The notes: generated by a model not told the origin, from the sequence alone. A DNA stretch of 64,000 nt from Candidatus Moraniibacteriota bacterium (GCA_013334575.1 JAAXXG010000002.1:69377-133376), one strand, 5' to 3'; positions 37,064-53,703 are shown, counted from the first letter of the stretch. Translations and numbers: made by a program.

Positions 37064-37100
37064 ACAGTAAAGACGCCTCAGTGGGGCGTCTTTTATGTTT
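37064..37100. terminator. bidirectional terminator / REP-like hairpin between miaA and the RAYT gene
   Basis: aagacgcc tcagtgg ggcgtctt stem followed by TTTATGTTTGATTT. The stem core gacgcc/ggcgtc resembles copy 3 of the palindromic element. Confidence 0.5.
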
Positions 37101-37632
37101 GATTTATCGGATTCTCCTCATCCGTATCCCATTCCCGAGGATTGATACGGATATATTCCTGGATCAACCGTAGAGACTCCTCGTTCCGGATAATATGATC
37201 ATGGAATCGCGATTGCCATGAGAATCCGGATTCGGCATGCGACGCCCGGATTCTTTTCGTACAAACAGATTTGAACGACCCGACAATCGTCGCCAAAGTC
37301 GGTCGTTTTCGTGGTTCACTGTTTTCCGTAGAGACGGGGCATGCCCCGTCTCTACACGGAAGGATCTCGATGATTCCGTGAACATGATTCGGCATTACAA
37401 CAAATTCATCCGTTCGGATATCTCGAAAATGGTCCGGGATACTACCCCAGCAATCCCGGACGATTTCCCCGATTCCGGATAATGTCATCTCCCCGTTTTC
37501 GATATCGCCGAACCAGAGACACCGATCCGCGGCACAGATGGTCACGAAATATGCGCCAGGTTGGGAATAATCATATCCGGGTAAGCGTGATGATCGAATC
37601 CTGTATTTGCCTTTGTAGTTATCCGCTACCAT
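37093..37632 (-). CDS. REP-associated tyrosine transposase (RAYT, IS200/Y1 family)
   Basis: YRIRSSRLPGYDYSQPGAYFVTICAADR; HuH motif VVMPNHVHGIIEI; C-terminal WQSRFHDHIIRNEESLRLIQEYIRINPREW. Flanked by REP-like hairpins. Confidence 0.75.
   Translation of the reverse strand: MVADNYKGKYRIRSSRLPGYDYSQPGAYFVTICAADRCLWFGDIENGEMTLSGIGEIVRDCWGSIPDHFRDIRTDEFVVMPNHVHGIIEILPCRDGACPVSTENSEPRKRPTLATIVGSFKSVCTKRIRASHAESGFSWQSRFHDHIIRNEESLRLIQEYIRINPREWDTDEENPINQT
37327..37354. repeat. 28-nt palindromic element, copy 2, inside the RAYT coding sequence
   Basis: gtagagacggggcatgccccgtctctac, read on the minus strand as CRDGACPVST. Confidence 0.75.
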
Positions 37633-37818: not shown

Positions 37819-39300
37819 CTACGCCTCCAGTCTTTTCCGGAGTATCTCGGAAACCACCTGCGGATTCGCTTTTCCTTTGGTTTCCTTCATCACCTGGCCG
37901 ATGAGGAACTGAAACGCGTTCTGCTTTCCGGCATGGTAATCCTCGACAGACTTCGCGTTCGCGGCAAGAATCGCGTCGACGATGCCTTCGAGCTCCCCCG
38001 TGTCGCTCACCTGCGCGAGATTGAGCCGGTCGATGATATGCGACGGATCGTTATCCTCGCCCTTGAGCATCTCACCGAGGACCGTCTGAGCTGCGCTCGA
38101 ATTGATTTTTCCATCGGCAATTATCACGATGAATTCCGCATAGTTCTCGGGAGTGATTCCCGACTCACTGATGGTTTTTCCGGATTCGACCAGTCGTTTT
38201 CGCAATTCGGTCACGATATAGTTCGCGGCGAGCCGGATCGCCTTCTCCTCCCCGGCGACCAACTCCTTGGAATCTTTCTTTTCTCCGATCTCGCTCACGA
38301 CCGCTTCGAAATAATCCGCGGTCGGCTTCTCGGCGGTGATCACCGAGACCGCTTCAGACGACAGTCCGTATTGCTTCGCAAACCGTTCTTCCTTGGCTGC
38401 CGGCAGTTCGGGAATGGTCAGACGGAGCGCCTCGATGTCCGCTTCCGAAAATGAGAAAGGCGGGATGTCCGGCTCGGGGAAATAGCGGTAATCGTGCGCA
38501 GACTCCTTCTTGCGCTGCGAAACGGTTTTCTGTCCGTTCTCGTCCCATCCGCGCGTCTCCTGTTCGATCTTCTCGCCCGATTCGAGCGCCTTCGTCTGTC
38601 GGGCGATCTCGTATTCGATCGCCCCGGCAACCGCCTTGAACGAGTTGAGGTTCTTCACCTCGACCTTGGTACCGGACAGCCGGTCCTCACCTTCCGCATA
38701 CAGCGAGATATTCGCCTCGCAGCGCATCTGTCCCTTTTCCATGTCCGCGTCCGAAATGTCGAGATACCGGAGGATCTGCCGAAGCTTCTGGCAGAAGAGC
38801 CGCGCGTCGGCGGCGTTGTCGATATCCGGCTCGGTCACGAGTTCCATGAGCGGCACCCCCGAACGGTTCAGGTCGACCAGGGTATGTTTGGTACCGGCGG
38901 GATGATACAGCTTGCCGGTGTCCTCCTCCATGTGGATCCGGGTGATGCCGACCGTCTTGCCCTCGCGGATCGTGAGCGCCCCCTTCCCGCAGAACGGTTC
39001 GTCGTACTGCGAGATCTGGTAGCCTTTCGGAAGATCGGGATAGAAATAGTTCTTGCGGTCGAACTTCGAGTGCCTGGCGAGTTCGCAGCCGAGCGCGAGT
39101 CCGGCCCGCTGCACCGATTCGATTGCCAGCCGGTTCGGAGTCGGAAGCGCTCCGGGCTGTGCGGTACAGACCGGGCAGATGTGTACGTTCGGTTCGGCCT
39201 CCTGTCCGAGACCGTTCCTGCACGAGCAGAACATCTTGGACTCGGTCCGAAGCTCGACATGGACCTCCATACCGATGACGGGAGTGTATTTCATAATCAT
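37819..39300 (-). CDS. gatB: Asp-tRNA(Asn)/Glu-tRNA(Gln) amidotransferase subunit B
   Basis: MIMKYTPVIGMEVHVEL N-terminus and C-terminal GatB/YqeY tail. The upstream ORF extension is Arg-rich read-through. Confidence 0.9.
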   Translation of the reverse strand: MIMKYTPVIGMEVHVELRTESKMFCSCRNGLGQEAEPNVHICPVCTAQPGALPTPNRLAIESVQRAGLALGCELARHSKFDRKNYFYPDLPKGYQISQYDEPFCGKGALTIREGKTVGITRIHMEEDTGKLYHPAGTKHTLVDLNRSGVPLMELVTEPDIDNAADARLFCQKLRQILRYLDISDADMEKGQMRCEANISLYAEGEDRLSGTKVEVKNLNSFKAVAGAIEYEIARQTKALESGEKIEQETRGWDENGQKTVSQRKKESAHDYRYFPEPDIPPFSFSEADIEALRLTIPELPAAKEERFAKQYGLSSEAVSVITAEKPTADYFEAVVSEIGEKKDSKELVAGEEKAIRLAANYIVTELRKRLVESGKTISESGITPENYAEFIVIIADGKINSSAAQTVLGEMLKGEDNDPSHIIDRLNLAQVSDTGELEGIVDAILAANAKSVEDYHAGKQNAFQFLIGQVMKETKGKANPQVVSEILRKRLEA

Positions 39301-39337: not shown

Positions 39338-39763
39338 TCACTGCCTCCCCGTACTCCCGAAATGCCCCTCTCCGCGTATCGTAGCATCGAGCTCCGAAAC
39401 CTCGCAAACCTCCGGAAGCGCGATCGGCACGACGAGCATCTGGGCGATCCGCTCTCCCGACGCGACCTCATACGGCTCATCCGAGGTGTTGAGCATGATA
39501 ACCTTCCATTCCCCGCGATAGCCGGAATCGATGACGCCGCCGAGATTCGTGATCCCGTGCTTCGCCGCGAGCCCGGACCGGTCCATGATCAGTCCGACGT
39601 ACCCCTCCGGGATCGCGATGGCGACCCCCGTCGGTACGATGCGCCGCTCTCCGGGACCGAGGGCGGATCCCTCCGTCGCGTACAGGTCGAGACCGGCATC
39701 GCCCGGGTGAGCGCGCATCGGTAACACCGCATCCGGATGGAGTCGTTTTATTTCCAGTTTCAT
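39338..39763 (-). CDS. dut: dUTP diphosphatase
   Basis: MKLEIKRLHPDAVLP ... AGLDLYA ... GVIDSGYRGE motifs. 141 aa. 4-nt overlap with tmk. Confidence 0.85.
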   Translation of the reverse strand: MKLEIKRLHPDAVLPMRAHPGDAGLDLYATEGSALGPGERRIVPTGVAIAIPEGYVGLIMDRSGLAAKHGITNLGGVIDSGYRGEWKVIMLNTSDEPYEVASGERIAQMLVVPIALPEVCEVSELDATIRGEGHFGSTGRQ

Positions 39764-40464
39764 AAGAGTCCTTCCACGACTTCGTATACCTTCTCGGCGA
39801 TGTCCTCGCGCGCGAGGAGTTCCCCCTTCCGGACACATTCGACCTGGTGCCAGTCGTTCCGCCTCCGAACGAGCCGAAGCGCGCTCTCGCGGCTTTTCGC
39901 GAGATACCGCTCGTCCGTCTCCAGGGTATCCTTCCGGCTTCCGCCCCGAAGATACGGTTTTTTTGATACTGCCTCCTTCCCGGCCAGGAGGCGTCGCGAT
40001 ACCTCGGTCGGAACATGCAGATGGATGATCGCATCCGGACGCGGCAATCCGAATACGCCGAATTCCATCCGGTCGAGCCATTCGAGAAATTCGCGCCGTT
40101 TCCGCGGCTCGGATATCTTTCCTCCCTGATGGATCTGATTCGAACTCACGTACCGGTCAAGAATGACGACGCATCCGTCTCGGAGCCATCGTTCGATCGT
40201 CGCCTTGGATTCGAACCGGTCGGCCGCATAAAGGACGGAGGTGATCTTCGGGTCAAGACCCGCGAAATCCCCATGTTCACCGGCGAGGCATTCGCCGATC
40301 AATGCTCCGAACAGGTTCGATTCGTATCGCGGAAAATCGAGCATCCGCACGCGATACCCGTCCTTCCGCAGACGGGACAACAGAAGCGCCGCCTGTGTCG
40401 CCTTTCCGGATCCATCGGAGCCGTCGATCACGATGAGTCGCCCCTTGCCGTGCCGCTTCGCCAT
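39760..40464 (-). CDS. tmk: thymidylate kinase
   Basis: P-loop IVIDGSDGSGKATQ, DRY-like DRYVSSN, and a lid region. Confidence 0.85.
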   Translation of the reverse strand: MAKRHGKGRLIVIDGSDGSGKATQAALLLSRLRKDGYRVRMLDFPRYESNLFGALIGECLAGEHGDFAGLDPKITSVLYAADRFESKATIERWLRDGCVVILDRYVSSNQIHQGGKISEPRKRREFLEWLDRMEFGVFGLPRPDAIIHLHVPTEVSRRLLAGKEAVSKKPYLRGGSRKDTLETDERYLAKSRESALRLVRRRNDWHQVECVRKGELLAREDIAEKVYEVVEGLL

Positions 40465-40478
40465 ATATCCGTTTTCAG

Positions 40479-41078
40479 TTATTCGCCCGACTCCGCATCG
40501 CGAAGCCGTTTCCGATCGGAAGCCTCCTTCCGCATCTCTGCGATCGCGGTATCGACCGCCGCATAGAGCTCCTCGAGCGACCCCTCGTTGCCAATCACGT
40601 ACCGGGCCTGTCCCTTGAGCGCGGGAATACCGACTTCGGTCTCGAGCGAATGGTCACGTTTGAAATCCTCGAAAGTCTTGGTATCGTCGTCGGCGTTCTG
40701 TCGGCGTTTCACGATACGCCCGTACCGCGTCTCCATCGATGCCTCGACATAGATGAGCGAGAACTCGGGAAATCCTTTCACGGCCTCGATGTCGGACTGT
40801 CGACGCACACCGTCGATGACCACGAGCGGATTCGGATCCCGCACCGCGTCCTCGGCGATGGCGTGTGAGAGCAGGTTCTCGCCGAAGGCGCTACGGAGCG
40901 CTCCCGAGACCTTCGTCAGGTTCTCCCGGGTCTGCGCGACATGGATCCGGTTCAGGACATCCCGCAGCGGATCGGAAAACATGAACGTCCTCGCGCCGTA
41001 CTGGTTGGCCAGATAGCGTGCGACCGTATCCTTCCCCGAGGCGATCTCGCCCGCGATCCCGACGATGATCTTTCCCAT
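40479..41078 (-). CDS. deoxynucleoside monophosphate kinase, phage T4 gp1-like
   Basis: P-loop IVGIAGEIASGKDTVARYL. The C-terminal VIGNEGSLEELYAAVDTAI closely parallels T4 dNMP kinase VITNDGSLEELFSKIKNTL. Confidence 0.55.
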   Translation of the reverse strand: MGKIIVGIAGEIASGKDTVARYLANQYGARTFMFSDPLRDVLNRIHVAQTRENLTKVSGALRSAFGENLLSHAIAEDAVRDPNPLVVIDGVRRQSDIEAVKGFPEFSLIYVEASMETRYGRIVKRRQNADDDTKTFEDFKRDHSLETEVGIPALKGQARYVIGNEGSLEELYAAVDTAIAEMRKEASDRKRLRDAESGE

Positions 41079-41099
41079 ATGCGTGATTATTAGCCCTTA

Positions 41100-42404
41100 T
41101 TATTCGTCCGTCGGCTTCTCCGTGATATCCTGTCCGCCACGACGCACGTCCCAATCGTCCCGGTCCCGGTCGATATGGAGCGCGACATCCGGAAACCGCT
41201 CCGAGATCTCGTCCGCCATCCGCCATGCTACGGGCCGAATGGTCGGATGCACCGTCTTGCCGCTGCGCAGTTCGACGAAGTAGACGAGGGCCGGCAGGTC
41301 GAAGGTGAAGCGGCACGGCACGCGATAGCCCATGGCGACGAGATACTGCCGCTCCTCCGGGTGCGCTCCGATCGCCGCGATGGCCGCCGTCTGCCCGGCG
41401 ATAAGTTCCTCGGCCTCCTTCCGCACCGCCTCCGGCAGCTGATCCAGGTACCACGGATGGAACCCGTGTCGCGTCGAAAGGAGCGGCATGTGATGGATAC
41501 CGGCGCGATGCCGCTGTATGTCACGGTACGAACCGTAGTCGAGCAGGAAGTCGAACGTGAAGGTGCCCGCGTCGCGTACGTACTGCGGCAGGTTCGTCTT
41601 TTGCGGACGCTTCGCGAGGATATCGCGATACGACGCGAGCGCCCCGGCCGAAACCGTCGTCGTAGCACGGAAGTCCGGCGGGAAATCCGCCGGGTCGAAA
41701 TAGGTTTCCGGCGCGAGAACGTCCTCCCGATACGCGTCCTGTTCCGGATAGCGCTTGTGCGAGAAGCTGTTCGGATAGCGCTCCGAAAGTCTCGAAAGGA
41801 CCGTCTCGGCCATCTCGCGGACCTCGGAAAGCGGATGATGCCGCAGAAGCGAGAGTTTGTCCCATGCCTGCCGCAGGTTCGTATGCCACGAAAGCTGCGT
41901 CGTGATACCGGCCGGGAGGAAACCGCGGAGGATATCGAACGTGCGCGCCTTGATCGCCTTGTCGTAGAGCTTCTCGTCCTCGTCCGCGCGACGCGGATAC
42001 TTCACCCGCAGGTGATCCTCGACCGCGGGGCCCGATGCGACATAGAACGAAAGCCACCGTTCCTGTATCGCCCGCGAAGCGTCGTTCCCGACCGGATCGA
42101 TCATCGGCTGACGGCTCATGTCGATATAGCGGGTACTCGTCTCCTGGCCGGAGTACAGCGGCCAGTCCTGGATCGCCTTGTCGCAGAGGATGCTCACTCC
42201 CTCGATGAAGATTGTCGTACTCCCGCAGTCCGCGATCGAATGGTGCCCGTAGCCCACGTAGAACCGCTCCATGAACTTCCCCGATCCGGTCTCCGCGACC
42301 TTCGCGGCGTGGATCTCGACACTCTCGGCGCTCCGGGAATAGAGCGCCTGCATCATTGCGGTATCCTCGGGTCCGTACTCGTCATAGAGGAAGATCTTGG
42401 GCAT
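41100..42404 (-). CDS. thyX: FAD-dependent thymidylate synthase ThyX, tandem-duplicated (two Thy1 domains in one chain)
   Basis: N-domain: GHHSIADCGSTTIFIEGVSILCDKAIQDWPLYSGQETSTRY, with RHR replaced by QDW. C-domain: FTFDFLLDYGSYRDIQRHRAGIHHMPLLSTR plus RFTFDLPALVYFVELRSGKTVHP. Each half also has the FxWTxNxRxL region. Confidence 0.6.
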   Translation of the reverse strand: MPKIFLYDEYGPEDTAMMQALYSRSAESVEIHAAKVAETGSGKFMERFYVGYGHHSIADCGSTTIFIEGVSILCDKAIQDWPLYSGQETSTRYIDMSRQPMIDPVGNDASRAIQERWLSFYVASGPAVEDHLRVKYPRRADEDEKLYDKAIKARTFDILRGFLPAGITTQLSWHTNLRQAWDKLSLLRHHPLSEVREMAETVLSRLSERYPNSFSHKRYPEQDAYREDVLAPETYFDPADFPPDFRATTTVSAGALASYRDILAKRPQKTNLPQYVRDAGTFTFDFLLDYGSYRDIQRHRAGIHHMPLLSTRHGFHPWYLDQLPEAVRKEAEELIAGQTAAIAAIGAHPEERQYLVAMGYRVPCRFTFDLPALVYFVELRSGKTVHPTIRPVAWRMADEISERFPDVALHIDRDRDDWDVRRGGQDITEKPTDE

Positions 42405-42557
42405 AGAGGTTCCCGTTAAGATGACGACCCTAGCACCCTATTTTCGCACGAATCACGACGGGTCGCAAACGTCGCCGCGCAACCGAAAAACGGACGAAAG
42501 TCCGAGAAAAGGAAAAAGCGCCCGCGGTTTCGCGAACGCCCCCTTCCGTTTCCGGGC

Positions 42558-43914: not shown

Positions 43915-44015
43915 GACGACAGCGGGAAGGTTTTTTCGTTTCAAGCCCCTCCTTTCCGATTTCATCAAAAAAATGAGGCTCATATAAGCCTCATTATTTG
44001 ATCGTTTCGGATTTC
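43915..44015. repeat. intergenic repeat element A (about 100 nt, terminator-containing)
   Basis: Near-identical to B at 44677..44774. Contains a hairpin aatgaggctcatataagcctcatt with an A-run before and a T-rich run after, acting as a bidirectional terminator. Confidence 0.7.
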
Positions 44016-44132
44016 TGACAAAATGAAAGCGTTTGCCTCAGGCAACACCCGGAATTTTGACAGCACCGAAAGAACCCTATAACATGCCAAAAAAAGCCCT
44101 TTCCCATCAACCGAACGATTCCCGGAGGCAAC

Positions 44133-44624
44133 ATGCGAACGCAACGAAGCTATTATCTCGCCGCATTTCTTGGCGCGCTATATGCGCCGATTCTCGGGAC
44201 GGTCTACCCGGACGCCTTGTCGATCGAAGTACCGCTTAGTGTATCCGTAACAGTTGCGGCCGTCTTTATACTGGTCTTCTCCACGCTCCTTCGAAGAAAC
44301 GGTTTCCGCTCCGCGCTTGGGGTAGCGGGTTACCAACTGGCATACCTGACAACTCTACTGTCGCTCGCGGTACAATATCTTAAACATGGAACCGGAGCAG
44401 TCGCTCCCGCCTTCTTCGGAACATTCGCCCATTCTTCCGTTACTGTTCTTTCCTCGATTCAAGACGAGAAATTCCTACTGGTATTTATCTGGACGGCTGT
44501 CGCCATGAACAATGCCATGGTGTACCTTCATCCGCCAATCCACGTATTGTGGACCGTCGCCCTCATGTTCTACGTCCTCTACGGACTGTCCGAGGAGCCC
44601 GAGACGATCGCTCCGGAATCGTAG
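44133..44624 (+). CDS. small integral membrane protein
   Basis: 163 aa with 5 hydrophobic helices. Flanked by repeats A and B. Confidence 0.45.
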   Translation: MRTQRSYYLAAFLGALYAPILGTVYPDALSIEVPLSVSVTVAAVFILVFSTLLRRNGFRSALGVAGYQLAYLTTLLSLAVQYLKHGTGAVAPAFFGTFAHSSVTVLSSIQDEKFLLVFIWTAVAMNNAMVYLHPPIHVLWTVALMFYVLYGLSEEPETIAPES

Positions 44625-44676
44625 GGCCTGTGCCGAATCAAGAATGAAGCCTCCCCGCTCGAATCATCGCAAGATG

Positions 44677-44774
44677 ACGACGGGGAGGTTTTTTCGTTTC
44701 AAACCCCTCCTTTCCGATTTCATCAAAAAAATGAGGCTCATATAAGCCTCATTATTTGATCGTTTCGGATTTCG
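44677..44774. repeat. intergenic repeat element B
   Basis: Same element as A, with an additional upstream stem cctccccg ... cggggagg followed by TTTTTT. Confidence 0.7.
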
Positions 44775-44864
44775 GGCAAAATCTGAACCTATGAACGTCC
44801 CTCGTGATCCGGTAAGAAAGAAGCCCGTGTTCTTGGAACACGGGCCTCGAAAAGAACATACCTG

Positions 44865-46029
44865 TCAGAGGTTCGTCATGATGGCCTCCCCCATCGCCTC
44901 GGTACCGAGAATCATATCGCGGTTATCAACCAGCCTCGCCAAATCCGCGGTACGATATCCCGCCAAAAGCGTCTTCTCCACCGCCTTCTCGATAGCCCCC
45001 GCACCAACCTTCGCTCCGATATGACGAAGCATCATCGCAGCCGTCAGGATCCGACCGATAGGATTCACCTTATCCTTCCCCTTAAGGTCGCAGGCCGTTC
45101 CCGCTCCGCTCTCGAACATTGCGGAACCGGTTTCCGGATTCACGGCGGAACTGCACATCATACCAAGACTTCCCAGCATGCCAGCAGCGCCGTCGGAGAG
45201 AATGTCGCCGTGTTCGTTTCCGCACATGATGACTCCCGCAAGCTTCATCGGCATGCCGAGCAGTGCGTTCGCCGCATCGACATACAGATGGGAAAGCGGG
45301 ACATCGGGGAATTCTGCCTTTCCGATCTCGGTCGCCATTTTCCGCCACAGTACGTAGCGAGCCATCACGTTCGTCTTATCGATCGAGATGACCGGAAGAC
45401 CGCGCTCCCGGGCATACCAAAACACGGCACGCATGTACTTCAGGAGCGTCTCGCGACGATAATAGGCAAGTTCAACGACCGCCTCCTCATCCCCGACGAC
45501 TTCCTTCTTCAACTTGATCATCAACTGGTCCCGCACTCCGCAACCGATATGATCATACAGATCCGAAGTGCCAAAGTAACTGTCCTCGAGCAGCATCCGG
45601 ACGAAAACCTGTACTATACCATCCGATGGGATATTTTCCGGCCGCACGAGACACAGATGATCCAGCGACTTGTGATAGACGACCGGCCGGAAGTTGAGCA
45701 ACAAGCCCATTTCCTTGCGCAGGGCAAGTAATGCCCGTGCTTCCGGCATCATCTCCGGATGTTTCACGCCGAGCGTCTTATCAATCTCAGTATCCCCCAC
45801 TCCTCCGAAGAAGAGTGTCCCGATCTCCACTGCTCGTTTCAACGACTCGGCAGGAAGCGTATCGCCGAATTCCCTGAAGGCGTTCCACCCCATCGGCGTT
45901 TTTTCGAAGACGATCTCGATACCGTCCTTTTTCGCGGCTTCGATGGCGACCGCACATGCGGCCGCCATCATTTCCGGAGCCGCCCCGTCGCCCGTCACGA
46001 GCGCGATTCGAACTTCCCTTCCTTCTTTC
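44865..46029 (-). CDS. isocitrate/3-isopropylmalate dehydrogenase family (LeuB-like)
   Basis: IALVTGDGAAPEMM, a GSLGMMCSSAV region and a dehydrogenase C-terminus. Start assigned to TTG at 46027-46029, preceded by AAAGGAGGG, to avoid a 115-nt overlap with the upstream gene. Confidence 0.7.
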
Positions 46030-46051
46030 AAGAGTCCCTCCTTTTGTTGAT

Positions 46052-48019
46052 TTACAGCTTTCCTTCCGCCTGCAATCCGGCGGCTGTCTCGAACATGAAC
46101 GGGATGACTCCGCCTTTCCTGAGCAGCTCCTTCTGCAGCCAGGTAAGCTTGAACGGAATCTCCCACATGTCCTCACCCGCCGTACCGACGCGGACCACAC
46201 CCTCGTCCGGAAGCACTTCGACCGTGTCCGGTCGCCTCTCACGCAGGTCATTCATGACCTCGTCCGGGAGTTCGACACACAGCAGGCCGTTCGCAAACAT
46301 GCTGGCACTGAAAATACGTGCGAAGCTCGACGCGATAACGCATGTGATTCCAGCCTCGAAAAGGGACCAAGGAGCATGTTCACGCGACGAACCGCAACCG
46401 AAGTTCTTACCAGCGACCAGTACGCTCGACCGGAACAGCCGTTCCTGTTCCTCCCCGGTCAGGTCGACCCCTTCAAGACAGTGCTGTCCAAGCCCGGTTT
46501 TCACGGACGTCGTCAGGTACTTCGCCGGGATGATGACATCCGTATCGACATTGTCCCCTCTCTTCCCCTGGAGATACAAGACTTTCCCCGAGAACTCCGG
46601 CTTGACCGTGATGCGCGTGGCCCGATGCAGTACGCCGTAGTCCGGCCGACTCAACTCGGTCACCCCATCCCAGTCTGTGAGATTGAGCGGATGACCTTCT
46701 TCGGACATGCTCGCGATATCGTCGAGCACACGTCCACACAGCTCCGGACTCGGCACCGCGACGCTTCCCGTCATGGCCGACAACGCCGCCACCGCCGGAG
46801 AACAGAGATGCACCATACCGCCCTTACCCATCCTTCCCTTGAAGTTCCGGTTACTGGTCGAAATGCACACCTCTCCGGGAGCGAGGACGCCTCCGCTCAT
46901 ACCCAGGCACGGTCCGCACGTCGCTGACATGACGACGCATCCCGCGGCCATGAATACATCGATGAGACCCTCATACAAAGCTCGCCGATAGATATGCTGC
47001 GTCGCCGGAATAACGATACACCGCGTACCGTCAGCGATCCTGCCGCCGAAATCACGCATGATGCCGGCCGCGATGCGCAGGTCTTCCAGGCGTCCGTTCG
47101 TGCAGGATCCGATGAACACCTGCTGAAACGGCATACCCTCCAGATCGGACGCTGGCACGACATCGGCCGGGGTATACTCCACCGTGATGAGCGGCTGCCT
47201 GTCAGTCACGTCGATCGTGATGACCTGATTATACTCGGCATTCGGGTCGCTGTTCCACGCCAGCAATTCCTCTTCCTCATATCCCGCCGACTCGATGAGC
47301 GGCCGCAGATATTCGATGGTCTTGTCGTCCACCGCCACCATACCGGATGTCGCCCCGGCCTCGACCACCATGTTCGTCATGGTCATCCTCGCCTCCATGC
47401 TGAGCGCCTCCACGACCGGCCCGCCGAATTCGATGACCGCATTCGTCGCGCCGGCAACTCCCATCACCTCGATCAGCATCAGGATGAGGTCCTTGGCGAA
47501 CACGTTCGCCGGGAGTGTCCCGACATACTCGACGCGGATCACCCGCTGAGGCTGACAGAACCAGAGCTCGGTCGAAACGGCCGCCATCATCTCCGAAGTC
47601 CCGACTCCCGCGGTAAGCGCACCGAACGCGCCACCGGTACAGGTATGACTGTCACCCATGACGGCAATCTGCCCCGGGAACAGCCACCCGCTCTCGGGAA
47701 AAAGCGCGTGACAAACGCCCCCCTGCCCCGCATCGCGGAATTCGATGCCGTGTTCCTTACACCATTTTCGCAGCGTATCGGCCTGAAACGCCGTCGCCTC
47801 GTCGTTGGACGGGCAGACGTGGTCGATCGTCGCTTTTATCCTGTTCGGATCGAATACCACGTCACAGCCGCGGGCCTTCATGTCCACGATACCAGGAGGC
47901 GTCGTGATTTCATGACAGAAGACCTGATCCACTTTCAGCACCATGGTCCCGTCCGGAAGCGTTTTCAGCAAATGCGCATCGACGATTTTCTGATACGCCG
48001 TTTTTCCTCGTTTCTGCAT
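46052..48019 (-). CDS. aconitase-family hydro-lyase, fused large+small subunit (LeuC/LeuD-like)
   Basis: 655 aa. Fe-S cluster cysteines in GSCTNGR and TCGPCLG contexts, and a LeuD-like swivel domain at the C-terminus. Confidence 0.8.
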   Translation of the reverse strand: MQKRGKTAYQKIVDAHLLKTLPDGTMVLKVDQVFCHEITTPPGIVDMKARGCDVVFDPNRIKATIDHVCPSNDEATAFQADTLRKWCKEHGIEFRDAGQGGVCHALFPESGWLFPGQIAVMGDSHTCTGGAFGALTAGVGTSEMMAAVSTELWFCQPQRVIRVEYVGTLPANVFAKDLILMLIEVMGVAGATNAVIEFGGPVVEALSMEARMTMTNMVVEAGATSGMVAVDDKTIEYLRPLIESAGYEEEELLAWNSDPNAEYNQVITIDVTDRQPLITVEYTPADVVPASDLEGMPFQQVFIGSCTNGRLEDLRIAAGIMRDFGGRIADGTRCIVIPATQHIYRRALYEGLIDVFMAAGCVVMSATCGPCLGMSGGVLAPGEVCISTSNRNFKGRMGKGGMVHLCSPAVAALSAMTGSVAVPSPELCGRVLDDIASMSEEGHPLNLTDWDGVTELSRPDYGVLHRATRITVKPEFSGKVLYLQGKRGDNVDTDVIIPAKYLTTSVKTGLGQHCLEGVDLTGEEQERLFRSSVLVAGKNFGCGSSREHAPWSLFEAGITCVIASSFARIFSASMFANGLLCVELPDEVMNDLRERRPDTVEVLPDEGVVRVGTAGEDMWEIPFKLTWLQKELLRKGGVIPFMFETAAGLQAEGKL

Positions 48020-48182
48020 GTTCGTCCCCTGTTTTCGTTGAGTGAATATACTATTTGTTAAACAAAACGGATCCTACAGTGCAGGATCTCGTGCCATTCC
48101 GATATACCAGGAAACGACTCGTATAGCAAGCGGATAATGACATTTACGACTTCAAACCGTCTTTTGGCCACAATCTTCCCAG

Positions 48183-48238
48183 TTTCACCAAAAAAATGAG
48201 GCTCATATAAGCCTCGTTATTTGATCGTTTCCGATTTC
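48183..48238. repeat. intergenic repeat element C (core of the A/B family)
   Basis: tttcaccaaaaaaatgaggctcatataagcctcgttatttgatcgtttccgatttc. Confidence 0.65.
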
Positions 48239-48556: not shown

Positions 48557-50008
48557 TCAGAAATTGCCGCCTCCGCCTGCGCCTGCGGTTTCACCTCCGC
48601 CAAAGGAGATGCCGCTGTCCGGGGTTGAACTCGAATAAATCGGACTCGGACTATATGGCGAAGAAGGACTCGCGACATATGGGTGGCCACCCTCATCGGA
48701 CCGGCTTGACCTGTGCGATACGCCGGACGAAGCATGACTTCCTGACGGCCGTGCGGAGAACGACCGCTGCGGCACGTATATCGACTTCGGAGCAATCTCG
48801 TCGACTGCGGATTTCCTGATCGACCGTGCTTCGTCGTTCAGCAGTTCAAGCAGCAGCGCCGCCTGTAAGAAGTCGAACTGCTTCGGACTCGGCTCTCTCA
48901 ACAGATCCCGACGGAGACTTTCATACGCCTGCCGCTGATCTTCACAGCGATCGCGAAGACGCTGTGAGACACCTGGCTTTCGGACCGCGTCTTCGGCCCG
49001 ATTGATGGCGACACCCGCAGCATCAAGCTTCGCATCGATACCGGATACCGTCTGACGAGCTCCGCGATATACCCTCATCAGCCCGGACAGTTGTGCGATA
49101 AGAGAAACGGCTGCATATCTCGCACCGCTCCAGCCGGTCTCATCAGAACGCTCACCGATACCGGACAACAATCCGTTGAATTTCGATGCTATGTCCGCAG
49201 CCTTCTGACGGGCTTCCATAATGGCAGCATCGGTGACGTACTGACCGGCATTGTCGAGTTGCCGGTTGAAAGAGTCCATCTCCCGATTGAAATCAGCCTT
49301 GAGTTGCTCCACCGCCGCACGACGGCTCCTGGCCCTGCGAGACCGAGCGAACAGATACCGGATTCCGACCCCGATTCCGACTATAGCGAGTACGACGAGA
49401 AACGCCAACAACACGTCTTCGGCTTTCGCATCTGATTGAGCTTTGCCGGTCGCTTCAACCCGCTCTATGCTCTGCTGATGTTCCGTGGAGATCTTCGGCC
49501 CGAGGACCGTCATGATGTCCCGCGACATCTGTTCAAGCGCCGGACCGATATCACCAGCTCGCAGACTACTCGCCAGCAACGGCTTCGCACGGTTGAAGAT
49601 TCTCCCGCATTCGGCATCCGTCAACTCCGTTTCAACCCCCTTTCCGGTCGTAATCCTGACTTTCCGAGGATTGGTGCAGACCGTTATCAGGACACCGTAG
49701 TCGTCACCTTTCTGTCCGATGCCGGTCTCGTGAAAGACGTCGACTGAATACTGCTCGATCGTCGCCCTTCCCGCAAAGTCCTTCGTCGTAAGCACGACGA
49801 TCTGGACCTTCGAATCCTTCTCATACCCCGAGAGAAGCTGATTCAAGTCCGACTTTGACGATTCGGAAATGATACCGGCGAGGTCCGTAATGCGCTCCGT
49901 GAGTTTCGGAAGTTCTTCACCGTTCCCTTCAGCCGCGAATGCCGTTCGGCACCCGTGAGAGAGAAGGAGCAGCAAGAACACCGCCAGAACTTTCATGATT
50001 TTCCTCAT
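48557..50008 (-). CDS. TPM-domain (TLP18.3/Psb32/YgcG-like) membrane protein with Gly-rich C-terminus
   Basis: Signal peptide, TPM-like KVQIVVLTTKDF ... DDYGVLITV ... RKVRITTGKGVE, a TM helix, a long charged linker and a GGGETAGAGGGGNF tail. Confidence 0.6.
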   Translation of the reverse strand: MRKIMKVLAVFLLLLLSHGCRTAFAAEGNGEELPKLTERITDLAGIISESSKSDLNQLLSGYEKDSKVQIVVLTTKDFAGRATIEQYSVDVFHETGIGQKGDDYGVLITVCTNPRKVRITTGKGVETELTDAECGRIFNRAKPLLASSLRAGDIGPALEQMSRDIMTVLGPKISTEHQQSIERVEATGKAQSDAKAEDVLLAFLVVLAIVGIGVGIRYLFARSRRARSRRAAVEQLKADFNREMDSFNRQLDNAGQYVTDAAIMEARQKAADIASKFNGLLSGIGERSDETGWSGARYAAVSLIAQLSGLMRVYRGARQTVSGIDAKLDAAGVAINRAEDAVRKPGVSQRLRDRCEDQRQAYESLRRDLLREPSPKQFDFLQAALLLELLNDEARSIRKSAVDEIAPKSIYVPQRSFSARPSGSHASSGVSHRSSRSDEGGHPYVASPSSPYSPSPIYSSSTPDSGISFGGGETAGAGGGGNF

Positions 50009-51859: not shown

Positions 51860-52411
51860 TTATTCAGATAGCTTACGAAATATATCCTCATTAAGCAATT
51901 CTTCAGATGTTTTATTTATTTCGTTTAGATATGAACGCAATGTTTTTAAATCTAGTTTAATAAAATCCCCATATACCCCATCTTTATCGACGCCAATTTT
52001 CGTCAATACGACAAAGTCATTGCCCATTTCCAACCAACGAGCGTGTATAGCCTTATTCCTTATTACGGCCGCTTCTTTTAATCTCAAATGTAATGATGCA
52101 TACAAAGAAGACAACTCCGGTTTTCCAACATGTTTGCACATGGGAACAAAAAAATCTCTAAACAAATCGACTTTTTGTGAAAAAGTTAGTTTCGCAATAA
52201 CCGTGTAGCCTAAATCACTGGACCTAGAATGAATAAAACTAGTTAGCACATCATCAAGAACACTCTCAAGATAATTAAAGTCCAATATAATTTCCCCAAG
52301 TATCAGCTTTATTTGCTTCAATTTCGCAGCTGATATCGTTGTATCGAAATCATGATTAAAACTCCCATCATCGAGATATATTTTCATATAATTATTTTGG
52401 TTTCGCTCCAT
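51860..52411 (-). CDS. hypothetical protein in an AT-rich island, possible HEPN-like domain
   Basis: GC drops sharply over 51860-52440. R-x4-H motif in AAVIRNKAIHARW. 183 aa. Confidence 0.4.
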   Translation of the reverse strand: MERNQNNYMKIYLDDGSFNHDFDTTISAAKLKQIKLILGEIILDFNYLESVLDDVLTSFIHSRSSDLGYTVIAKLTFSQKVDLFRDFFVPMCKHVGKPELSSLYASLHLRLKEAAVIRNKAIHARWLEMGNDFVVLTKIGVDKDGVYGDFIKLDLKTLRSYLNEINKTSEELLNEDIFRKLSE

Positions 52412-53061: not shown

Positions 53062-53703
53062 CTATCCTTCAGACCGCACAGATCTACTTGCCTCTTTTTT
53101 GGTCGTTTTCTTGGTTGTCTTGGCCGTGGACTTCTTGCCTTTGGCGAAGTTGAGATACATCTTGGACGCGACGGGCTTCTTGTCGCCGTAGTACTTGGAA
53201 TTGAGCCCCTCCGAGCCGTAGGGCTTCTCGCAGGGCGAGGAGAGCTCCTCGAAGGCGACCTGGCCGATTGCCATCTTGTAGTGAAGCTTGATCGGGAGGC
53301 GCCCCGCGTTGAAAAGCTCGAGGGTGAGCTTGAGCGAATTGCCCGGGTCGAGAAATCCCGCGGTCGTATGGATGATGAGCCCCAGGCGGCCGAGCGAGCT
53401 CTTGCCCTCGAGCCGGCAGGCGTAGCGGTCCGAGACGCCGGTCTCCTCGTAGATGAGGCCGAGCGCGAACTCGCCGGGATGCAGGATGAACGGCTCGTCC
53501 GGCCGGATTTCCATCGGCTTCATAAGGCCCTGCGTGGGGGCCTTGGGATCGATGACGAAGTTGTGTGTCGTATCGAAGACCAGGAAGTGTCGGTCGAGGT
53601 GGACGTCCACGCTCGCCGGCTGGACGTGCTTGCGGTTGAACGGCTTAATGGTGATGTCGCCCTTGCGAAGGGCCTTCACGATGTCGCGGTCGGAAAGGAT
53701 CAT
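53062..53703 (-). CDS. dcd: dCTP deaminase with Lys/Thr-rich C-terminal tail
   Basis: MILSDRDI ... PASVDVHL ... jelly-roll dUTPase-like core, plus a KKSTAKTTKKTTKKEASRS tail. Confidence 0.8.
   Translation of the reverse strand: MILSDRDIVKALRKGDITIKPFNRKHVQPASVDVHLDRHFLVFDTTHNFVIDPKAPTQGLMKPMEIRPDEPFILHPGEFALGLIYEETGVSDRYACRLEGKSSLGRLGLIIHTTAGFLDPGNSLKLTLELFNAGRLPIKLHYKMAIGQVAFEELSSPCEKPYGSEGLNSKYYGDKKPVASKMYLNFAKGKKSTAKTTKKTTKKEASRSVRSEG

Follow-up and report, generated by a model that had tools for sequence, protein, structure and literature searches.

The stretch of DNA analysed here, a 64,000-nucleotide piece of a Candidatus Moraniibacteriota genome (GCA_013334575.1, JAAXXG010000002.1:69377-133376; hereafter the window), carries on its minus strand at 39338-42404 four tightly spaced open reading frames (ORFs) encoding a tandem flavin-dependent thymidylate synthase (ThyX), a P-loop kinase, a thymidylate kinase (Tmk) and a dUTPase (Dut). 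A first-pass annotation had described four consecutive genes of this kind, tandem ThyX included; they were found where it had placed them, and the family profiles match (Table 1). The gaps are 21 nt between thyX and the kinase gene, 14 nt between the kinase gene and tmk, and 43 nt between dut and gatB, while tmk and dut overlap by 4 nt (ATGA), the dut start codon overlapping the tmk stop codon. The spacing of these five genes appears operon-like. A terminator-like hairpin upstream of thyX, 3' of an 80-aa ORF, is likely to be the 5' limit of a putative thyX-kinase-tmk-dut(-gatB) unit.

Table 1. Genes and signals of the thyX locus, with positions counted from the first letter of the window
Feature	Position	Strand	Basis
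ThyX, two-domain (tandem), 434 aa	41100..42404	-	Pfam Thy1 2.9e-26, two stretches
P-loop NMP-kinase-fold protein, 199 aa, DNMK/UPF0200/PRK08356-like group	40479..41078	-	AAA_17, DNMK, PHROG 139
Tmk, 234 aa, divergent	39760..40464	-	Pfam Thymidylate_kin 5.4e-18
Dut, trimeric-type dUTPase, 141 aa	39338..39763	-	TIGR00576 9.6e-47
gatB	37819..39294	-	GatB_N and GatB_Yqey domains in a near-identical relative
dcd (dCTP deaminase)	53062..53703	-	TIGR02274, 178 bits against a cutoff of 92.8
Terminator-like hairpin, 14 pairs and T-run	42513..42544	-	Consensus scan

Dut, whose start was placed at an internal ATG and not at the start of a 247-aa ORF, was recognised at equivalog level (TIGR00576, 158.3 bits against a cutoff of 102.55; NF001862, 156.6 against 103). 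The Tmk translation contains the P-loop GSDGSGKAT and a DRY motif. It scores above the gathering threshold of Pfam Thymidylate_kin (65.8 bits against 27) but under the equivalog cutoffs of TIGR00041 (67.8 bits against 83.25) and NF005923 (122.9 bits, 1.1e-35, against 193). The dcd gene reported by the first-pass annotation was also borne out, as were HAD and Nudix genes near it. It lies about 11 kb upstream of thyX, with HAD, Nudix, GNAT and TPM genes and a 4.1-kb insertion, all non-conserved, in between.

The window is part of a Candidatus Moranbacteria chromosome (Patescibacteria, also called the candidate phyla radiation). Proteins from metagenome-assembled genomes (MAGs) of Candidatus Moranbacteria match the kinase and ThyX at 99-100% identity, and a 53-kb contig of one such MAG (GCA_013336155.1) is 96-99.6% identical to the window and has its gene order: ligA-gatC-gatA-...-secE-nusG-rplK-rplA-...-dcd-HAD-x-Nudix-x-GNAT-TPM-...-thyX-kinase-tmk-dut-gatB-miaA-dnaE-...-rnhB. 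Ordinary chromosomal genes are present (clpB, recJ, dnaJ, dnaE, miaA, gatABC, ligA, rplKA and nusG), together with genes for a GT4 glycosyltransferase, a class II aminoacyl-tRNA synthetase, HtrA, MacB/FtsX transporters, ApbE, MltG/YceG, PCMT and RNase HII. The GC content at third codon positions (GC3) of the four genes is 0.69-0.81, compared with 0.75 for gatB and 0.86 for dnaE, and their overall GC content is also that of their neighbours. No integrase or phage structural (hallmark) genes were found among the annotated genes of the window, no tRNA or Rfam elements were detected in the 64 kb, and the only mobile gene nearby is that of a transposase like those associated with REP elements (RAYT), beyond gatB. 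The region shows no mark of a prophage or an island.

The kinase matches the generic P-loop kinase domains AAA_17 (5.6e-10) and AAA_18 of Pfam. It also scored above the gathering threshold of Pfam DNMK (PF21448; 33.7 bits against 27.1), through profile positions 3-48 of 232 only, which is the P-loop region. Two families match over the full length: PHROG 139, 'dNMP kinase' (deoxynucleoside monophosphate kinase; 1.1e-20, residues 2-186, profile positions 82-267 of 342), most PHROG annotations not being experimentally tested, and PRK08356, 'hypothetical protein' (2.6e-31, 108.9 bits, under its equivalog cutoff of 189). By these profile matches the kinase is homologous to UPF0200/PRK08356 but not an equivalog. 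Other kinase models scored below their cutoffs. The dephospho-CoA kinase (CoaE) models reached 25.9 bits against 27 (PF01121) and 27.7 against 65.55 (TIGR00152), with residues 4-72 only. The adenylate kinase (Adk) model TIGR01360 gave 19.5 bits against 284.1 and the archaeal Cmk model TIGR02173 gave 23.7 against 102.1; Udk was also far below. The deoxynucleoside kinase family dNK (PF01712) matched at 5.5e-4, with 20 bits against 27, in the P-loop only. The kinase was not placed in CoaE or in a cellular adenylate kinase family, the assignments that the first-pass annotation had named as counting against its reading.

The AF2 model of the kinase (pLDDT 93) has a nucleoside monophosphate (NMP) kinase fold as predicted. 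The top Foldseek match is SSO1041 of Sulfolobus solfataricus (3lw7, crystallised with AMP; template modelling (TM) scores 0.70/0.80), followed by AK1/AK5, UMP-CMP kinase and CoaE, and viral predicted structures annotated as dNMP kinase in BFVD match about as well as SSO1041. CoaE structures rank under SSO1041 and the adenylate kinases, with TM scores of about 0.53-0.61. SSO1041, a UPF0200 protein (3LW7, 3H0K), is also the best PDB sequence match (2e-12, residues 6-172). It superimposes with a root-mean-square deviation of 3.2 Å and shares the size, the P-loop, a DG-x-R motif and an arginine-rich short LID. However, it is only 23-24% identical, and its P-loop reads SGKS where the window kinase has SGKDT. 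As UPF0200 is an archaeal family without an assigned function, the match transfers no activity, and no literature on UPF0200, SSO1041 or PRK08356 was found among open-access papers.

The motifs of the kinase are the P-loop GEIASGKDT, DGVRR, an arginine-rich short LID (R118, R121 and R125, then NADD) and a C-terminal NEGSLEEL. Residues G15 and K16 of the P-loop, R62, R92 (in DGVRR), R118, R121, R125 and N164 are invariant in the family. By alignment reading, DGVRR and R-x3-R-R-Q-N-A-D-D resemble the DGFPR motif and the short LID that adenylate and UMP-CMP kinases have, which would suit a phosphorylated acceptor. At 50% identity the family falls into 1152 clusters (E<=1e-30), or 7081 at E<=1e-10, and the current names for its members are 'AAA family ATPase' and 'dephospho-CoA kinase' (JGI). 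Three metagenomic proteins of 379-395 aa (P0192, P0207 and P0213) contain two tandem kinase copies, one SSO1041-like and the other like the window kinase, which suggests paralogues of differing specificity.

The first-pass annotation had called the kinase T4 gp1-type, and this assignment stood only in its broader sense. The DNMK, PHROG 139 and BFVD matches place the kinase in a broad dNMP-kinase-like group, and it shares with T4 gp1, which phosphorylates hydroxymethyl-dCMP, dTMP and dGMP, the SGKDT P-loop and a C-terminal motif, TE-G-[IL]-P ... N-[DE]-G-S-L-E-E-L. The likeness to T4 gp1 itself is confined to the first ~38-45 residues and this C-terminal motif. In phmmer, T4 gp1 (the query sequence was checked as 100% identical to T4 gene 1) matched at 7e-4 with only residues 6-42 and 145-177 aligned, and hhalign of the kinase family profile aligned 38 N-terminal columns at 72% probability. 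T4 gp1 (1DEK) has 241 aa with a large insert at about residues 45-200 that has no counterpart in the 199-aa kinase, and 1DEK was not in the top 50 Foldseek PDB matches to the kinase model. Proteins of the Bacillus phage Basilisk and Bcp1 groups are about 30% identical to the kinase over 92-95% of the length (Basilisk gp76, 31%). Phage dNMP kinase genes, such as that of Basilisk, lie in a replication module, whereas the window kinase lies in a cellular housekeeping operon.

The ThyX protein as a whole matches Pfam Thy1 with 92.9 bits (gathering score 24.8), and its C-terminal 206 residues alone reach 31.5 bits over profile positions 59-190, lacking the first ~58 positions of the profile. As each half passes Thy1, the protein was considered a genuine two-domain ThyX. 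It is far from the characterised enzymes: TIGR02170 gave 40.2 bits, under the equivalog cutoff of 87.9, and a PDB profile search gave E values of about 1e-3 to 0.04 with the N-half only. The family has more than 4177 matches and is about 60% identical across Patescibacterial classes; tandem ThyX is thus a large and strongly conserved family, very divergent from canonical ThyX. The sole PDB fold matches of the AF2 model (pLDDT 88) are ThyX and PolB. No two-domain ThyX is among the top 50 of them, the matched structures being all single-domain. Comparison of the halves with each other gave a profile-profile match of only 20 columns, in the last helix, with no significant BLASTP match, and phmmer of the C-half against PDB gave no meaningful match. 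A duplication is supported by the Pfam matches on each half and by the predicted secondary structure.

The ThyX motif RHRxxSxxxxSxR is not intact in either domain and is complete only across both halves combined. The N-half, which reads QDWPLYSGQETSTRY, keeps the substrate loop S-x4-S-x-RY (YSGQETSTRY) and has DWP in place of RHR; its Q-D-W-P-L-Y-S-G-Q-E-T-S-T-R-Y aligns to I-R-H-R-H-F-S-Y-S-Q-L-S-Q-R-Y of the Mycobacterium tuberculosis enzyme. The C-half, which reads QRHRAGIHHMPLLSTR, keeps RHR (QRHRAG) and not the Ser/Arg pair, and the Ser/Arg present in it is not conserved in the family (consensus RHRNGVCRMPLLTT). Both patterns, DWP...S....S.RY in the N-half and RHR in the C-half, are invariant across the tandem family, as are H54, S90, R92, Y93, R160 and R178 in the N-half and R298, H299, R300 and R380 in the C-half. 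Compared with canonical homotetrameric ThyX (Thermotoga maritima, M. tuberculosis and PBCV-1), the tandem enzyme has two Thy1 domains in a single chain with RHRxxSxxxxSxR split between them. The N-half aligns with residues 61-227 of M. tuberculosis ThyX, including the S-x4-S-x-RY loop and two conserved arginines. Because the motif losses in the two halves are complementary, we infer that the tandem enzyme probably forms a dimer with composite sites that mimics the canonical homotetramer. The active sites would probably be fewer, with the N-half contributing the substrate loop and the catalytic histidine region and the C-half contributing the RHR flavin/phosphate motif. Among open-access papers, searches on tandem ThyX and on ThyX in Patescibacteria turned up no account of this operon or of a two-domain ThyX. 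Tandem ThyX proteins 31-34% identical over about 90% of the length are encoded by the jumbo Vibrio phages BONAISHI (L092, 4884-6326) and vB_VmeM-Yong, and their annotation reads hypothetical or 'thymidilate synthase-like'.

When one genome per GTDB species was scanned by pattern, 237 loci with a relative of the kinase emerged, of which the best 80 were kept, and the ORFs within 6 kb either side of each kinase were searched with profiles. The counts are lower bounds, as contig ends cut many loci. Most of the 80 loci are labelled Patescibacteria (Moranii-, Parcu-, Falkow-, Lipton-, Portnoybacteria and others), and many bear different or unspecific names ('uncultured Bdellovibrionales', 'uncultured bacterium'); all labels were taken as given. 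At least one pyrimidine deoxynucleoside triphosphate (dNTP) gene was present in 78 of the 80 loci and a thymidylate synthase (ThyA or tandem ThyX) in 67, and all matched genes share the strand of the kinase, with the single exception of one dCMP deaminase. The shared order is rplA, (dcd or dCMP deaminase), (thyA-folA or tandem thyX), kinase, tmk, (dut or mazG), gatB. Tmk was found in 65 loci, Dut in 41, MazG in 19, RplA in 45 and GatB, a conserved downstream neighbour across Patescibacteria, in 53-60. The gene directly upstream of the kinase encodes dCMP deaminase in 30 loci, dihydrofolate reductase (DHFR) in 27 and ThyX in eight, and the one directly downstream encodes Tmk in 29, ThyX in nine and ThyA in six. 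The survey showed a linkage between the kinase and genes of pyrimidine deoxynucleotide metabolism throughout Patescibacteria.

Within the same 6 kb on either side, the two thymidylate synthases exclude each other. ThyA was present in 43 loci and tandem ThyX in 24, never together, and DHFR, found in 41 loci, accompanies ThyA in 40 of 43 and tandem ThyX in none of 24. ThyA oxidises folate to dihydrofolate and hence needs DHFR, whereas ThyX does not. ThyA with DHFR against ThyX without it is a classic signature of non-orthologous displacement. As these two arrangements alternate, the slot is read as making dTMP and tandem ThyX as the cell's thymidylate synthase, with no extra paralog. Dcd (29 loci) and dCMP deaminase (38 loci) likewise never occur together. 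In another Moraniibacteriota genome, whose kinase is 55% identical, the order is rplA-dcd-thyA-folA-kinase-tmk-mazG-gatB-miaA-dnaE. The chromosomal slot is identical to that of the window, but ThyA and DHFR take the place of tandem ThyX, and MazG that of Dut. Synteny with rplKA, gatB, miaA and dnaE is kept across Moraniibacteriota and beyond, and in a Paceibacterota genome a dCMP deaminase-kinase pair adjoins a 451-aa tandem ThyX beside nusG-rplK.

Fusions gave further links to dCMP and dUMP. On contig ERZ930069 k127_86655 (L007, 6001-7029), considered archaeal because GINS and RIO1 kinase genes are on the same contig, the kinase is fused N-terminally to dCMP deaminase (P0068, 342 aa), and the fusion adjoins a long Dcd and Tmk. 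In two further proteins, P0144 (627 aa) and P0186 (638 aa), dCMP deaminase is fused to tandem ThyX; these fusions point to dUMP as the probable substrate of tandem ThyX.

Taken together, we consider it probable that the locus is a native, vertically conserved dTTP-supply operon of a Patescibacterium (Moranbacteria) that includes a putative salvage dNMP kinase. The steps and exclusions are those of the classical thyA-folA and dcd-dut-tmk pathway (ThyA with DHFR against ThyX; Dcd against dCMP deaminase), except that Patescibacteria gather them in one operon between rplA and gatB with an extra kinase. With steps assigned from established enzyme-family roles, of which family membership alone was checked by profile, Dcd would convert dCTP to dUTP, Dut dUTP to dUMP, tandem ThyX dUMP to dTMP with FAD, NAD(P)H and methylenetetrahydrofolate, and Tmk dTMP to dTDP. 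The kinase would phosphorylate salvaged dNMPs, most probably dCMP and possibly several, and supply dCDP and dCTP to the DNA pool and to Dcd in a cell living on scavenged nucleic acids. In Dcd-type genomes such as that of the window, salvaged dCMP would be raised to dCTP before it enters the route through Dcd, Dut, ThyX and Tmk, while in genomes of the deaminase type dCMP would be directed to the dCTP pool by the kinase and to the dTTP pool by the deaminase. De novo nucleotide synthesis is missing in Patescibacteria, which are believed to depend on imported DNA or NMPs (PMC11665869, PMC9530719, PMC10936435), and the proposed salvage role fits this dependence.

Several points weigh against the proposal of a dTTP-supply operon with a salvage kinase. 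Neither the sequence nor the fold separates dCMP from other (d)NMPs as the substrate of the kinase, and where a kinase adjoins dCMP deaminase or forms one protein with it, the two would draw on the same dCMP; a deoxycytidine kinase acting upstream fits equally well. The neighbourhoods covered reach at most 10 kb either side of a match, and the idea that the kinase makes up for an absent cmk, gmk, adk or ndk is accordingly conjectural. Tmk and ThyX are under the NCBIfam equivalog cutoffs, so their exact activities would follow from family membership, and the composite-active-site model of tandem ThyX is drawn from motif patterns alone.

A bolder combination, which we hold as tentative and possible rather than probable, is that the kinase is an unrecognised, broadly conserved cellular dNMP kinase of salvage-dependent ultra-small prokaryotes and that tandem ThyX represents a distinct 'half-site' architecture, with active sites put together from complementary degenerate domains. 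If this were true, the kinase would be analogous to the broad-specificity enzymes of phages T5 and T4, recycling dNMPs from degraded host DNA directly to dNTPs, and its family would span Patescibacteria and, in fused or tandem form, putative DPANN-like archaea. The kinase is embedded in a thymidylate operon found in a bacterial radiation that is among the largest, and naming the enzyme that activates salvaged dNMPs would close a gap in the metabolic reconstruction of Patescibacteria. The split-motif tandem ThyX, as read from sequence, would be a structural variant of an antibacterial drug-target family.

The kinase may instead act at another step of the pathway, either as a deoxynucleoside kinase that converts deoxycytidine or thymidine to its monophosphate before dCMP deaminase, or as a stand-in for NDP kinase that converts dTDP to dTTP after Tmk. 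The first role suits a route from deoxycytidine through dCMP to dUMP, given the 30 loci in which the kinase adjoins dCMP deaminase and the archaeal fusion, and weak dNK matches like that of the window kinase were also precomputed for some homologues; the 29 loci in which the kinase adjoins Tmk would suit the second. However, the fold and the arginine pattern are NMP-kinase-like, with the AMP-bound SSO1041 as the best structure followed by AK1 and UMP-CMP kinase, and the dNK score is far under its cutoff. NDP-kinase activity is, to our knowledge, not the primary role of any member of this kinase fold. We therefore regard a role at another step as unlikely.

It is improbable that the kinase is the organism's CoaE, placed at this locus by coincidence. 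Many homologues bear the JGI name 'dephospho-CoA kinase', CoaE profiles match weakly, CoaE is among the fold matches, and the C-terminal N-x-G-S-L-E-E-L motif also resembles CoaE. However, PF01121 and TIGR00152, both under their cutoffs, align only the first ~70 residues, and in fold SSO1041 and the adenylate kinases are closer to the kinase than CoaE is. The link to pyrimidine dNTP genes in nearly all surveyed loci and the fusion to dCMP deaminase are also unexplained by CoA metabolism.

The first-pass annotation had proposed a module in which a ThyX paralog and a gp1-type kinase make and phosphorylate a non-canonical pyrimidine dNMP such as 5-hydroxymethyl-dUMP, and we consider this very unlikely. 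It draws on the DNMK match and the phage dNMP-kinase relatives of the kinase, on the distance of tandem ThyX from canonical ThyX (TIGR02170, 40 bits against 88; PDB E values of about 1e-3 to 0.04) and on the similar tandem ThyX of jumbo Vibrio phages. However, tandem ThyX is the sole thymidylate synthase of its locus, fills the slot of ThyA and DHFR without ever occurring alongside them, and is fused elsewhere to dCMP deaminase; the DHFR coupling in sister loci shows that this slot yields dTMP. The kinase is kept with either synthase, a separate Tmk is nearby, and the operon is a core locus in hundreds of species. DNA glycosyl- or aminotransferases, which the annotation had suggested looking for, and other DNA-modifying transferases were not found in the genes nearest the operon, several ORFs of the window being without a family match. 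The sole glycosyltransferase identified in the window is the GT4 enzyme, about 37 kb away and unlinked to the operon. We know of no flavin-dependent dUMP hydroxymethylase.

The suggestion that the cluster is a domesticated phage remnant, or a recently gained viral island of nucleotide metabolism, is similarly remote: PHROGs match all four gene families and phages encode homologues of the kinase and tandem ThyX, but no phage protein exceeds 34% identity, the cluster keeps its place between rplKA and gatB-miaA-dnaE in many Patescibacteria with native GC3 and no integrase or structural phage genes nearby, and the kinase has two distant relatives (27-32% identity) in 2.9 million IMG/VR contigs compared with the 237 GTDB species-representative loci, both found by the same kind of scan, whose reach is limited by its pattern. 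The modified-base and phage-relic readings can be dropped, which leaves an annotation lead for a kinase family that exceeds 1,100 clusters at 50% identity.

The HAD and Nudix genes between dcd and thyX, which the first-pass annotation had counted towards a nucleotide module, were rejected as members because sister genomes lack them at the syntenic locus, dcd abutting thyA there, and because their family matches are generic. The interval contains a gene for a 483-aa protein with a TPM_phosphatase domain (48557-50008, minus strand) and, after it, genes for GNAT, Nudix and HAD proteins; other Moraniibacteriota have dcd immediately next to thyA. An ORF of 183 aa that separates the HAD gene from the Nudix gene (51860-52411, minus strand) had no Pfam or NCBIfam match, and its GC contents at the three codon positions (0.43/0.27/0.30) are strikingly low relative to its neighbours.

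Between miaA and gatB, an IS200/REP-associated tyrosine-transposase-like ORF (37093-37632, minus strand; NF047646, 63 bits, cutoff 80) was detected, and its DNA is also present in the close relative, without a gene call there. A segment of about 4.1 kb (44016-48175, with flanks 43954-44015 and 48176-48237) is not in the relative GCA_013336155.1. Both flanks align to one and the same 62-bp stretch in the relative, and the indel is therefore bounded by direct repeats. The segment encodes a fused protein of the aconitase/isopropylmalate-isomerase family (46052-48019; NF001614, 479 bits), an isopropylmalate/isocitrate-dehydrogenase-like protein (44865-46166) and a 163-aa ORF; aconitase- and isopropylmalate dehydrogenase-type enzymes are unusual for a Patescibacterium.

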